Shown: positions 34,720 through 38,678, counted from the first letter of the stretch. The stretch: 45,714 nt of DNA from a virus (IMGVR_UViG_2718218126_000004), one strand, 5' to 3'. The notes: generated by a model not told the origin, from the sequence alone. Made by a program: numbers and translations.

Positions 34720-35715
34720 TCAGGCCAGCACACCAATCGCCAGTGCGCGATCGATAAAACGAAATATCAGCTCCAGCTGGGAGCCATACTTCTCTTCAAA
34801 TGCCACGGTATCCGCATGCAGTTCGTCGTGGTGTTTTCTGCACAAAGGCAGCACAAAAAGGTCATGCGCTTTTGTACCCATTCCACCCTGACCATGGCCT
34901 ATCAGATGATGCGGATCATCAGCTGGCTTTCCACAACATGCACACGGCTGCGTCTTAACCCAGCGCGTGTACTGTTCATTAACCCAGCGACGACGTTTGG
35001 GGCGTAACATAAAAGACTCCGGCGACTCCGGATCCACTTTCAGCGCCAGCACCTTTTTCGCTTTATCCTGGATAATGCTGGTGGCAGGAACCGAAGGCAC
35101 AAGGTCACTTTCCCGGGTGACAGACGGCAAAACAGACTTCGGTAATCTCAGTGCCTTACGGGCTGCGCTTTCCGGTAAGGCATCCGCCAGGTCATTACGA
35201 ACCAGCCACCAGCACAGTTCCGGCATTGTCACGGCATGGTTATCATTAAAATCGAGATCCCGACGGACTACAGACAACACCCAATGGGCACAGTTATCCG
35301 TTGCCATTGATTCCAGCCGCTCCGTGAACTGATCACGTAACTGATTATCGCAGTGCCAGCACAGACGGATTGCGCCCGGCGCGTGTCGCATTGTGGTCAT
35401 GTTCTCGCTGTGCCAGTCGGAATGAGGCCACTGGCAACCTTTTTCACGAAGTAACCAGCTTTCAAGACATTCCACCCCACCAGCACGACGAATCACTGCC
35501 TCATTACGGAACACGGCCCGAACGGCAGGATCATCCGCCAGCGGTTGTGATGCCGCGGGAACGGCACCACTGGCGAAAGATGAATAATGCTCCGGCTCAG
35601 GCTCCAGCAGTACACGCCCCTGCATAAACAGGGGCATCAGCTCTGAACCGGGCCTGAACAATACGATCCCCATACGCGGGGCAATTTCAGGGGTCAGTAG
35701 TGCTCTCACGGTCAC
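34720..35715 (-). CDS. DUF968-like prophage protein with C-terminal HNH-like Cys/His cluster (start codon uncertain)
   Basis: 331-aa ORF; C-terminal [45 protein letters not shown] resembles the DUF968/HNH-like motif of prophage nin-region proteins. Confidence 0.6.
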
Positions 35716-35716
35716 C

Positions 35717-36514
35717 TCAATGAACGGTATCGAGCAGCTTTAACAGCTCAGGGAATCGGGATTCGAAGAAATGCGGCTGCGTCTCGCGCGGATTTGCGGG
35801 ACTGGTGATGTTCTTGCCGAACATGCAGCCTTTCGCTGTCAGCGACCAGAATTTTTTGATGTTGTTAATCGCGGTACGGCTGTATCGTTCGCGCTGCTCG
35901 ACGATCCCCAGCTTCACCATCTGGTGATATGCCTGATTAGCTGTCAGGCGGATACCATACTGCTTCAGCAGTGCACTCAGTGACAGCGTGGGACGGCTTG
36001 AGCCATCAGGCGCGTCAGCAGGAGCATCAATGGCATAGCGCGGTGCCAGATTCGGTAAGCCAACAGCCTCCTGGAGTTTCTGACAGGCACCAAGCACTGA
36101 AGAGTTAGACAGGTTTAACTCCCGGCGCATAAAGTCCAGCAGAATCACGCCAGCCTGCATCTTGTCAGCAGCCTGCCCGGATAATTTTTCCGATGCGCTG
36201 GTTACCATATCGAAAGTACGGATCACCTTCAGATGGAATGACGGGCTGATCCACATTGCATAGGCATACACCAGTTCTTTGCAGACATACGTCCCCTGGT
36301 TATTTCCGCCACGAATAACGTTAACTGGCTCTATATTGACCGAGTTGCAAATCTGCAACTCGCTTATTAAACGTTCAGTTTGCTCATTGCGGAGCCAGAA
36401 TGCAGGCTTATGCTTATCCAGAGAACCGGCAGCCCTGTGCAGATCGTTCAGGCTGTAACGCCCATAAGCATCACGACGAACTTCAATACCATCAATGACC
36501 ATCAGATTATTCAT
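35717..36514 (-). CDS. KilA-N domain antirepressor-like protein
   Basis: About 265 aa from the ATG with a strong AGGAGAAA RBS; N-terminus MNNLMVIDGIEVRRDAYGRYSLNDLHRAAG...KPAFWLRNEQTERLI is KilA-N/Bro-N-like. Confidence 0.65.
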   Translation of the reverse strand: MNNLMVIDGIEVRRDAYGRYSLNDLHRAAGSLDKHKPAFWLRNEQTERLISELQICNSVNIEPVNVIRGGNNQGTYVCKELVYAYAMWISPSFHLKVIRTFDMVTSASEKLSGQAADKMQAGVILLDFMRRELNLSNSSVLGACQKLQEAVGLPNLAPRYAIDAPADAPDGSSRPTLSLSALLKQYGIRLTANQAYHQMVKLGIVEQRERYSRTAINNIKKFWSLTAKGCMFGKNITSPANPRETQPHFFESRFPELLKLLDTVH

Positions 36515-36533
36515 ACTTCGTTTCTCCTCTTGA

Positions 36534-36923
36534 TCAGGCGGCTGCACCCGCCGTTTTCTCGTACTTACTGATAGTGATCTCGACCTTCCCTTCCGGGATA
36601 ACCGGTCCCCACTCCACCAGCATTCTTTTCACCTGGCTGTCGTCTTCCCACACACCCGCGTGGGTCAGGGCGTCAAACAGCGCCTTGTTATAGTTGTCCA
36701 GATCGCGGATCCGGTTATCCGGAGGAAACAACACGATCTCCACTGAAGCAGGTGCCGACGTTGGTTTCGGCAGACGACGTAACTGCTCAACTATTGCTGT
36801 GCACGCCGCACTCTGGAATTTTCGCCCCGCCGCGCTTATCAGGCTCTTACCAGCAAATGCCCCTTTGTTGGGGTGTCGCCAGTAGGTGTTCACGCTGGGT
36901 GGAAAAGGCAGAATCAGCTTCAT
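36534..36923 (-). CDS. rusA: RusA-family Holliday junction resolvase
   Basis: 129 aa; LILPFPPSVNTYWRH...DLDNYNKALFDALTHAGVWEDDSQV fits the RusA pattern (PPS.N.YY...DLDN..K...DAL...G...DD.QV). Confidence 0.8.
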   Translation of the reverse strand: MKLILPFPPSVNTYWRHPNKGAFAGKSLISAAGRKFQSAACTAIVEQLRRLPKPTSAPASVEIVLFPPDNRIRDLDNYNKALFDALTHAGVWEDDSQVKRMLVEWGPVIPEGKVEITISKYEKTAGAAA

Positions 36924-37246
36924 ACTTTCAGCCCCCTCTCATGTAACCAGTGGGCTGCACGCAGCCTGGCGTTTTCCTCACCAGCAAGCAGTGCGCGGAT
37001 AATCCCGGCCACCTCGCTGTCGTCGTCCTTCACCGCGGTATGAAGCGTGATGCCCCGGGCCACGCCACGCTTTATCGTGATGACGCCTTTTTTCTCCAGT
37101 GCGCGAAGATGCTCCACCGCTGCATTCACTGAACGGTATCCCAGCATGGTAGCCACCTCCTGATTGGTTGGCGGGAAGCCACGTTCTTTCTGGTAAGAAA
37201 TCAGCATATCCAGCACCTGCTGCTGGCATTGAGTTAACGTCGTCAT
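36920..37246 (-). CDS. Small winged-helix DNA-binding protein resembling the LexA N-terminal domain
   Basis: 108-aa product LTQCQQQVLDMLISYQKERGFPPTNQEVATMLGYRSVNAAVEHLRALEKKGVITIKRGVARGITL is strongly LexA-DBD-like but has no peptidase domain. Confidence 0.5.
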   Translation of the reverse strand: MTTLTQCQQQVLDMLISYQKERGFPPTNQEVATMLGYRSVNAAVEHLRALEKKGVITIKRGVARGITLHTAVKDDDSEVAGIIRALLAGEENARLRAAHWLHERGLKV

Positions 37247-37734
37247 TAAGCCCCCACGTAATTCCCTGACAGATACCACTCTTCACCCGATACAGCGCGC
37301 TTGCTGCTTTTCCGTAAACACCGCTCACGACGCGCAAGAAAATTGTTTCGCTCTTGCTGGGAGTGGCTTTCACGGAATGCCGCCATCCACACCGTTGCAG
37401 CACGACGGTATAAGCCCCTGGACTCCAGTTCTTCCGCCTGGCGGGTCAGGCACAAAATCACCCGGGGATCGTTAGTGCCGACATAGAAATTGCGCACAGG
37501 TCTGGATTCACGAACTGGTTGCGGTTCCGGCTCCTGCGGTATCTCAGTCAGCCGCGGGAAATGTCTGCGTGTATCCCCTTCACAACGGTGAGCCACACGC
37601 CCACTCTGACGTAACTTGCTTGCTGACTGCAGAACGCGCTGTCGTGAGTAACCTGCAAAAGCATCCGCAATGTCTCCGGAAGTACACCCCGGATGGGCTT
37701 CAATGAATTTCTGAACGTCATTCAAAAGACTCAT
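37246..37734 (-). CDS. Hypothetical early protein (possible PerC-like regulator; assignment weak)
   Basis: 162-aa ORF directly downstream of the O-like gene with ATGA stop/start overlaps at both ends; basic, Arg-rich; motif ELESRGLYRRAATVWMAAF vaguely PerC-like. Confidence 0.4.
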   Translation of the reverse strand: MSLLNDVQKFIEAHPGCTSGDIADAFAGYSRQRVLQSASKLRQSGRVAHRCEGDTRRHFPRLTEIPQEPEPQPVRESRPVRNFYVGTNDPRVILCLTRQAEELESRGLYRRAATVWMAAFRESHSQQERNNFLARRERCLRKSSKRAVSGEEWYLSGNYVGA

Positions 37735-37736
37735 GA

Positions 37737-38678
37737 TCACCCCCTGAATCCTGCCGGGATCTGGCTGTAGTCCACATTGTCGTAACTGGCTTTGAAGTAC
37801 GGGTCTTCGCGTTTTTCTGTGTACGTGCTGACGGACGGCGATAAGCGCAGGGAAAGCTCATCCCATTTTTCCCGCAGCTTCGACGGGCTGAGCACGTTAC
37901 GGCACCAGAACGGATCGCGGCTGACGCGGCTGTACATCTCGCAGATTTGTTTGTGAGTACGACCATCCTGCACACACATCAGGCGAATTTCGTTTGCCCA
38001 GGCTGTCCAGTTCGGTTCTTTGGGACGAACCACCTCGCCGTCACATTCGGCAGCCTGCTCGTACAGGGCGATGATTTTTTTCCAGAGCCACTGTGCGCAG
38101 GTCAAATCATCCTGCGTCCCCCACTGGCGTTTTTTAGGGCTGAATACAACCGCATCAGGATGGCGAGTTAAAAAATCCTGTTCAGCCGTCTGCGTGTCCG
38201 GTTGCGAAGAGTCCGGACGAGAAGGTTTTTTATCTGACGGATCATGTTTTGATTTTACTGACGGATCCCCGCCAGATTCTGACGGGTGAAAACCCGCTTT
38301 TTTGCCAGATTTCGACGCATCAAATTTTGACGGGTCAGATTTTGATGCGTCAGATTTTGACGGGTCAGAATCTGACAGTTGAGAAAATGCCGCTGCCTGA
38401 AGCTTCGCAACGTTAAGCTGATAAACATTCGACGCATTGCGGTTACCCTGGCGACGCGCCTTACGCGTTAACCAGCCTTCTGCTTCCAGCCGTGCGATAG
38501 CCGTTCTGACGGTACTCATCCCCGCGCCAATCTGGCGTGCAATGGTTTCAATCGATGGCCAGCACACACCTTCGTCATTACTGAAATCAGCCAGGCGGGC
38601 CATAATTGCCACGCTGGATAATTTCATGCCTGACGCTGCGCAACCATCCCATACATAGCCGGTTAATTTAGTGCTCAT
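37737..38678 (-). CDS. Replication initiator protein, O-like (N-terminal winged-helix domain; iterons within the gene)
   Basis: 313 aa; N-terminal HTH-like region (LSSVAIMARLADFSNDEGVCWPSIETIARQIGAGMSTVRTAIARLEAEGWLTRK); position after cro and the CII-position gene; internal repeats encode SDPSKSDASKSDPSKFDASKS. Confidence 0.7.
   Translation of the reverse strand: MSTKLTGYVWDGCAASGMKLSSVAIMARLADFSNDEGVCWPSIETIARQIGAGMSTVRTAIARLEAEGWLTRKARRQGNRNASNVYQLNVAKLQAAAFSQLSDSDPSKSDASKSDPSKFDASKSGKKAGFHPSESGGDPSVKSKHDPSDKKPSRPDSSQPDTQTAEQDFLTRHPDAVVFSPKKRQWGTQDDLTCAQWLWKKIIALYEQAAECDGEVVRPKEPNWTAWANEIRLMCVQDGRTHKQICEMYSRVSRDPFWCRNVLSPSKLREKWDELSLRLSPSVSTYTEKREDPYFKASYDNVDYSQIPAGFRG
38230..38385. repeat. 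Iteron array (about 8 copies, consensus ATTTTGACGGGTC) inside the O-like gene; candidate origin of replication
   Basis: Direct repeats atctgacggatc / actgacggatcc / attctgacgggtg / atttcgacgcatc / attttgacgggtc / attttgatgcgtc / attttgacgggtc / aatctgacagttg at ~13-17 bp spacing. Confidence 0.6.

Follow-up and report, generated by a model that had tools for sequence, protein, structure and literature searches.

Genetics and biochemistry of phage lambda have assigned the contact with the helicase loader P to the C-terminal half of the replication initiator O. Some lambdoid phages carry O-only replication modules, which account for 34 of 314 lambdoid phages (approx. 11%), phage LLS included (Zheng, Casjens et al. 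2025; PMC12315714). None of these modules has been studied and their type of replication is described as 'not yet understood' (PMC12315714), which leaves helicase loading in O-only modules as an acknowledged gap. Here we analysed the replication and nin region of the viral sequence IMGVR_UViG_2718218126_000004, a stretch of 45,714 nucleotides (nt; 45.7 kb) that we refer to as a whole as the window and in which positions are counted from the first letter. The window holds an intact-looking prophage with an initiator-only replication module, a kind that has already been documented. As the O-only layout had been described with its mechanism unexplained, the finding is a rediscovery, and the window adds nothing unique to the question. 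What is added here is that the C-terminal half of the initiator is a lambda-O-type domain, that solo forms and forms coupled to a DnaC paralogue share this domain, and that such initiators end in one of two tail motifs. We consider it rather probable, judging from sequence comparisons, that the initiator-only module recruits the host helicase DnaB, most likely as the DnaB-DnaC complex, and that the nin genes are cargo.

The initiator is an O-like protein of 313 amino acids (aa) encoded on the minus strand (37737-38678; HTH_36, 4.3e-11; phrog_391 'replication initiation O-like', 1.3e-135), and the prophage has no other replication gene. Its C-terminal domain (residues approx. 166-280; 37839-38183, minus strand) is predicted with a confident fold (predicted local distance difference test, pLDDT, 77-97). 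This domain has clear homology to lambda O over the C-terminal half of that protein (BLASTP 3e-26; hhalign probability 100, E 1.3e-48) and to phi80 gp15 (BLASTP 4e-25), while Pfam searches with the isolated domain gave no match even at E <= 10. It occurs in 2663 clusters of a 50%-identity library, where it is joined to various N-terminal domains: in a sample of 55 these were HTH_36 (15), Phage_rep_O (7), DnaD_N (5) and DUF1376 (3; unrelated to the DUF1627 discussed below), and a Citrobacter prophage carries the same C-terminal domain on yet another N-terminal domain. A previous reading of this DNA, made by a model from the sequence alone (the sequence-only reading), had pointed to the C-terminal half of the O-like protein as the place to look for DnaB or DnaC interaction domains, and this half proved informative, as it combines a lambda-O-type domain with a distinctive tail.

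The N-terminal domain (residues 1-100; 38379-38678, minus strand) is a winged helix and presumably the iteron-binding part of the protein. It matched HTH_36 (PF13730) with the E-value given above and DnaD_N weakly, in place of the N-terminal Phage_rep_O domain (PF04492), which was not found. The AlphaFold2 (AF2) model of this domain had a pLDDT of approx. 71-89, and its fold matched winged helices of the MarR, TFE and DnaD-N types. The linker that follows (residues approx. 103-163) is predicted to be disordered (pLDDT <50) and contains the low-complexity sequence SDPSKSDASKSDPSKFDASKS, which is encoded by iterons. These have a 15-bp unit of approximately CAGATTTTGACGGGT, present in about eight copies at 38229-38385 (repeat families D1-D4 and D7; strand not assigned), five of them at an exact 15-bp period. 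The iterons thus lie within the initiator's own gene, a layout shared with those annotated in lambda O and phi80 gene 15, and the array is presumed from its sequence to be the origin of replication. A DnaA-assisted origin was rejected, as no TTWTNCACA box lies within kilobases of the iterons.

The last 24 residues of the initiator, REDPYFKASYDNVDYSQIPAGFRG (37740-37811, minus strand), form a motif that we term the class G tail. An identical tail ends SfV orf39, a 272-aa initiator that is otherwise just 31% identical and is without a recognisable lambda-O-type C-terminal domain. The tail was found in 57 phage records. The initiator of mEp390 ends in a 67%-similar version, ...DYSRIPAGFRGANS, and its C-terminal region is a Phg_2220_C domain. 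The GFRG tail therefore sits on three unrelated initiator scaffolds, of the lambda-O, SfV-orf39 and Phg_2220_C types. Within the family D303, P308, G310 and R312 are conserved at >=90%, and the approx. 20 residues that precede these positions vary. The AF2 confidence of the tail was low (pLDDT 46-64), as expected for a linear motif, and the modelled tail is probably a disordered docking motif.

Comparison of initiator tails with the neighbouring genes revealed a correlation with the helicase-delivery partner. The class G tail, ...[IV]PxGFRG, was present in 12 lineages, none of which has P; 11 are without a recognisable loader and one carries a DnaC paralogue (class G loci: the window, L002, L017, L019, L009, L101 and L104-L106; contrasting loci: L020, L110, L103 and L108). 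By contrast, initiators with the class W tail, ...D(F/W/L)xNTDWxxG..., are followed by a Phage_lambda_P gene in all four resolved lineages (lambda, phi80, L103 and L108), a fifth class W contig being too short to judge the next gene. This small and not fully independent sample suggests that the partner that delivers the helicase is set by the very end of the initiator. GFRG would then mark P-independent and NTDW P-dependent initiators, giving a concrete, testable handle on O-only replication.

Relatives of the window initiator differ in the gene that follows. In Klebsiella (71-74% identical to the window initiator) the next gene is dam, in Pantoea (62-67%) it encodes a ParB-like protein, and in an E. 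coli mosaic whose C-terminal half is identical to that of the window initiator it is PerC-like. An E. coli Rac-like relative (59-63% identical) is followed instead by a 248-aa DnaC paralogue, which matches E. coli DnaC at 8.7e-74. The C-terminal domains of the solo and DnaC-coupled forms are approx. 80% identical. Because the domain occurs alone, with no loader, in Klebsiella, Pantoea, Citrobacter and the E. coli mosaic, and also together with a DnaC paralogue, an interaction of the initiator with a DnaC-type loader, from host or phage, is plausible. The phage dnaC gene appears to be an optional addition, since the same initiator family works without it in viable phages, and this is the main ground for supposing that the solo form uses host DnaB-DnaC. 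SfV had been a candidate for a loader-containing counter-example and was rejected: its 'replication protein' orf39 is a solo initiator and orf37 is an Ash family member. The term 'initiator-solo' reportedly comes from Weigel & Seitz 2006; a literature search on the term gave no match.

The sequence-only reading had described the arrangement as unusual, which it is not. A 4.7-kb block is 95-97% identical in the Shigella phages SfII and SfIV, the coliphages mEp460, PhiR29 and PhiR49 and others, and the segment 36920-38678 matched 3366 of 5426 complete E. coli genomes, 1542 of them over >=80% of its length. In E. coli, PGAP labels the genes of this block as helix-turn-helix domain-containing protein, PerC family transcriptional regulator (yfdN), LexA family, DUF4222 and RusA. 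Isolated phages that carry this module or another solo initiator are SfII, SfIV, SfV, ST64B, mEp460, mEp390 and the PhiR series, the last being listed on E. coli C or ECOR13. Near-identical modules in SfII, SfIV, mEp460 and the PhiR series point indirectly to a module that may support autonomous replication. Modules of this kind are found in the majority of E. coli genomes, in Shigella serotype-converting phages and in some Stx2 phages.

We searched both early operons for a loader. Pfam, PHROGs and NCBIfam scans of all their open reading frames (ORFs) gave no match to helicase, primase, DnaC/IstB, lambda P or DnaD families, and the ORFs from cro to Q gave none to the loader families DnaC/IstB AAA+, lambda P, DnaD/DnaB_2 and G39P. 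The sole loader-like trace was a weak similarity of the initiator C-terminal domain to DnaD and G39P domains. Searches by tblastn with a phage DnaC paralogue, lambda P, phi80 gp14 and a third P homologue, all of which matched their positive controls, returned zero matches in the window and in 80 related IMG/VR contigs; a diverse alignment run against IMG/VR had retrieved near-identical loci only, whose contigs served as the negative set for DnaC and P. The module thus has an O homologue and early operons without a helicase, loader or primase match, and the gene directly downstream of the initiator encodes a PerC-like protein, not a P-family loader. From cro (39612-39812) to Q every gene is called on the minus strand, with gene-to-gene gaps of -14 to +2 nt so that neighbours abut or overlap; such gaps leave no space for an uncalled gene. 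Rfam and tRNA scans gave no match in the replication and nin region. The sequence-only reading had given the same gene order and content, with labels on which Pfam, PHROGs and NCBIfam all agree. Its statement that no recognisable loader follows the initiator was borne out by the profile scans, none of which identified an ORF as a helicase loader, and by tblastn, and it was right that helicase recruitment cannot be read from the sequence.

In the reading that we favour, the N-terminal domain would bind the iterons in the initiator's own gene, and the C-terminal domain with its tail would then recruit the helicase DnaB of the host, most likely together with DnaC as the DnaB-DnaC complex. If so, no phage loader is needed. 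Relatives with a DnaC paralogue, or with a P gene in the lambda type, would simply have added their own loader, and the downstream genes would be ordinary nin-region cargo, co-transcribed after induction, and not replication factors. Several points weigh against this. The correlation between tail and partner comes from approx. 16 lineages, which are not entirely independent, as some share the downstream block; searching the PDB with the tail peptide gave no match; the sole DnaA box (TTWTNCACA) in the window lies at 1764, kilobases away from the iterons, and so gives no hint of a plasmid-like route assisted by DnaA; and a small protein of unknown fold (DUF4222, the 112-aa ORF or a winged-helix follower) could be a novel loader. 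A bolder version of the favoured reading, which we put forward only tentatively, is that IPxGFRG is a portable short linear motif docking unrelated initiators on host DnaB-DnaC or DnaB. A phage loader would then be dispensable, and in lambda and phi80 the ...NTDWxxG... tail would play the equivalent role of docking P. Tied to it as a separate and equally tentative part is the idea that the 108-aa LexA-like protein encoded further downstream acts as an uncleavable stand-in for LexA and restores repression of the host SOS regulon after prophage induction.

Helicase loading could alternatively bypass the initiator, with the host restart primosome (PriA/PriB/DnaT/DnaC) acting on an R-loop or D-loop that rightward transcription or recombination forms at the origin. 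The location of the origin inside a transcribed gene fits this explanation, as does an operon rich in recombination functions (RusA and the Orf-like/HNH protein). The early-left operon is without a recognisable Rec module in Pfam and PHROGs scans, and Rec-less lambdoid phages lean on host recombination (PMC12315714). However, the conserved lambda-O-type interaction domain and the strongly conserved tail argue for a specific protein partner, and Chi enrichment as in Rec-less lambdoid phages was rejected, with 6 sites only in 45.7 kb. The annotation of the initiator as 'primosomal protein I (DnaT)' was likewise discarded: PDB sequence searches with either the protein or its profile gave no DnaT match. 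We regard loading by the restart primosome as unlikely.

Slightly less likely still is a phage loader that is present but unrecognisable, so that the PerC-like winged-helix protein, the DUF4222 protein or the product of the 112-aa ORF would deliver DnaB in the manner of lambda P, P2 B or SPP1 G39P. Known small loaders are of similar size to these candidates. The PerC-like gene starts 2 nt after the initiator stop codon, exactly where P lies in lambda, and winged-helix proteins recur right after initiators with a GFRG tail (220 aa in L101, 139 aa in L104, and DUF1627 proteins); several solo initiators also have DUF4222 upstream. Against this, the solo modules of Klebsiella, Pantoea and mEp390 have no PerC-like gene, so that its product is not a general loader, and the PerC family consists of known transcription activators (PMC5931665). 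The E. coli mosaic solo module is without DUF4222, which does lie upstream of one P-coupled initiator, and DUF1627 is also found after a DnaC-coupled initiator. The initiator is the only gene common to all solo modules. Finally, a defective prophage, in which the loader gene was deleted and the module cannot replicate, is highly improbable and largely refuted already: same-initiator relatives with a DnaC paralogue do exist and the window copy is without the dam gene of most relatives, but the loader-less layout is also found in the isolated phages SfII, SfIV, mEp460, mEp390, SfV and ST64B, in four genera with diverged sequences and, as an O-only module, in 34 of 314 lambdoid phages (PMC12315714), and the abutting or overlapping genes show no deletion scar.

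Two overlapping frames lie upstream of the initiator, both on the minus strand and both supported by family matches: a 59-aa DUF4222 ORF (38668-38847; PF13973, 8.6e-19; phrog_1343) and, in a different frame, the 112-aa ORF (38688-39026; phrog_1170, 4.6e-70). Annotators call one or the other. The DUF4222 ORF and the beginning of the initiator gene share 11 nt; PGAP annotates it at the matching position in E. coli genomes, and it is also present upstream of the solo initiators in Klebsiella, Pantoea and Citrobacter. It is preceded by a cII/YmfL-like gene (39023-39688, minus strand; NCBIfam).

The PerC/YfdN-like gene downstream of the initiator (37246-37734, minus strand; PF06069, 9.2e-10; phrog_1324, 5.3e-78) encodes 162 aa from its ATG, with a pI of 9.8. 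The protein combines a winged-helix-like N-terminal half with a PerC motif at residues approx. 98-150, which scored 39.1 bits against a Pfam gathering cut-off of 22.6. The label of phrog_1324 is 'transcriptional activator', and PGAP names an identical gene yfdN, of the PerC family. YfdN has been described as 'the K12 unique PerC homologue', and ler responds only minimally to the larger Pch homologues PchD and PchE (PMC5931665). The window protein shares with PerC, Pch and YfdN a PerC motif above the Pfam threshold; it differs from PerC and PchABC (PchABC approx. 104 aa) in being longer, with the extra winged-helix-like N-terminal half. Pairwise similarity of the PerC-like protein to DUF1627 and to the L101 neighbour is marginal (E 0.03 and 4e-4), the L101 protein sharing the start of the PerC motif (pairwise E 4e-4). 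We noticed that the gene after class G initiators, or after their DnaC paralogue, is often small and encodes one or two winged-helix units of the DUF1627, MarR-like or PerC-like kind (L101:4077-4739, L104:1040-1459, L009:6724-7494 and window 37246-37734); such a follower may be a recurrent accessory gene. In most relatives (Kati, SfII, SfV, ST64B and Stx2a phages) a dam-type methyltransferase gene lies between the PerC-like and LexA-like genes (compared at L001:5925-6578). It is missing from the window (36920-37734), where these two genes overlap by 1 nt, and from the L014 mosaic.

The next gene encodes the 108-aa protein (36920-37246, minus strand; PF01726, 3.7e-19), in which the sequence-only reading had seen a LexA DNA-binding domain without a peptidase domain. 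Profile and alignment agree with this: residues 2-69 align without gaps to residues 2-69 of E. coli LexA at approx. 50% identity (phmmer against 1lea, 8.2e-16), Peptidase_S24 gave no Pfam match and the protein ends at residue 108. In LexA the catalytic residues are Ser119 and Lys156, the cleavage site is Ala84-Gly85, and helix III contacts DNA through Ser39, Asn41, Ala42, Glu44 and Glu45 (PMC3091678). The cleavage site, both catalytic residues and the dimerization domain are all missing from the 108-aa protein. Four of the five contacts (S39, N41, A42 and E45) are kept across its family, and E44 is V here and A in mEp390. The protein continues in a conserved, helix-prone C-terminal extension of approx. 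30 aa with invariant leucines and alanines, which could mediate dimerization; because dimerization may use this extension, the spacing of half-sites is not predictable. The family is narrow, with 170 matches, all in Enterobacteriaceae, and in every context seen it occurs in the same block downstream of a class G initiator.

This protein would most likely bind CTGT-like half-sites, dimerizing through the novel C-terminal helix; its targets may be either host SOS boxes or a site specific to the phage. Scanning the prophage for LexA boxes, as the sequence-only reading had proposed, gave a single exact CTGT-N8-ACAG in the window, a number no higher than chance, and this site lies within a late gene. 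Sites with one mismatch to the SOS box numbered 22 against 14.2 ± 4 expected, none at a convincing promoter position, and no CTGT...ACAG palindrome of spacing 0-20 was over-represented in the prophage. That the protein acts as an SOS mimic is possible, but we consider it less likely than not; should it bind SOS boxes, this would matter for SOS shut-off and for competition between prophages during induction. The other explanation, that it is a phage-specific activator or repressor acting at a different phage operator, comes just short of evenly balanced in our estimate. It has a precedent in GIL01 gp6, a truncated LexA homologue that binds a distinct palindrome and activates a late promoter (PMC6182141). 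The change of E44 to V or A favours it too, as does dimerization, which must use the new C-terminal helix, so that half-sites need not be 8 bp apart. Against a different operator stands the near invariance of four of the five LexA contacts in the family, as expected if CTGT half-sites are still read; the lack of an over-represented CTGT...ACAG palindrome of any spacing searched also counts against it, and no candidate site for a promoter palindrome of the gp6 type was found in the prophage. GIL01 gp6 is 44% identical to the DNA-binding domain of host LexA and is the only characterized truncated phage LexA homologue (PMC6182141). Compared by its description, gp6 is likewise a truncated phage LexA homologue in an early operon, but it comes from a tectivirus of Bacillus and has a short extension instead of the conserved helical one of approx. 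30 aa found here.

The remaining genes of the early-right operon, all on the minus strand, encode the RusA Holliday-junction resolvase (36534-36923; PF05866, 7.4e-15; phrog_34), a KilA-N domain protein (35717-36547; PF04383, 2.4e-26), a DUF968 protein with a C-terminal HNH motif (34720-35715; PF06147, 3.4e-81; HNHc_6) and the late antiterminator Q, which ends the operon (34319-34717; PF06530, 9.8e-54). DUF968 is described as joining an Orf/NinB-like domain to an HNH nuclease motif (PMC4118853), and together with RusA it is predicted to make this an ordinary, recombination-flavoured nin region. The true start of the KilA-N gene is likely the ATG at 36514, which would give 265 aa, the length at which homologues are called. 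A second KilA-N gene (30571-31092, minus strand; 173 aa; PF04383, 8.2e-22) lies downstream of the lysis genes, and the N-terminal part of its product falls in phrog_129, the same PHROG as the nin-region KilA-N gene.

Past Q, the opposite strand carries a porin gene, which is followed by holin, lysozyme and Rz genes and a lambda-like late region; upstream are a cI-type repressor and the early-left operon, with YfdQ/YfdR/YfdS-like, excisionase and integrase genes. The gene content of operons and flanks thus identifies the window as an SfII/SfIV/CPS-53-type lambdoid prophage. The early-left operon (42178-44019, plus strand) contains genes for a YfdQ-like protein (DUF2303), a YfdR-like HD-domain 5'-nucleotidase and a YfdS-like protein. 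K-12 YfdR is said to bind DnaA, and overexpression of yfdQ-yfdT reportedly inhibits chromosomal initiation; a link of this prophage type to host replication control through these genes is possible. The tail-tip (J-like)/lom region holds a tandem direct duplication of approx. 3.0 kb (6889-9869 and 9896-12876), identical over the first 1844 nt and diverged in the remainder, so that a truncated J-like ORF of 854 aa (7317-9881) stands next to the full-length one of 1165 aa (10324-13821). This duplication could be real or an assembly artefact. The only Rfam match in the window was IS009 (2644-2842, minus strand; 220.9 bits against a gathering score of 117), inside a tail-fibre-assembly gene.

Set beside described initiators, the window initiator differs from DnaD and the phage 'replisome organizer' proteins of Firmicutes in giving no Pfam DnaB_2 match and only marginal structural scores. 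DnaD works with DnaA, DnaB(Bsu) and DnaI, partners without counterparts in the window. With lambda O and phi80 gp15 it shares the two-domain architecture, the iterons in its own gene, a homologous C-terminal domain and the position after cII and before nin; unlike them, it has an HTH_36/DnaD_N-like N-terminal domain in place of Phage_rep_O, ends in ...IPAGFRG and not in ...NTDWxYGV.., and is not followed by P. The Rac-like modules, in which an HTH_36 initiator is coupled to a DnaC paralogue (YdaU/YdaV-like), share both the C-terminal domain and the tail, there ...IPPGFRG, and differ in carrying the DnaC paralogue that is absent here. With the O-only modules of LLS and the other lambdoid phages of that group, the window has in common a single O homologue without helicase or loader, and nothing essential differs between them.

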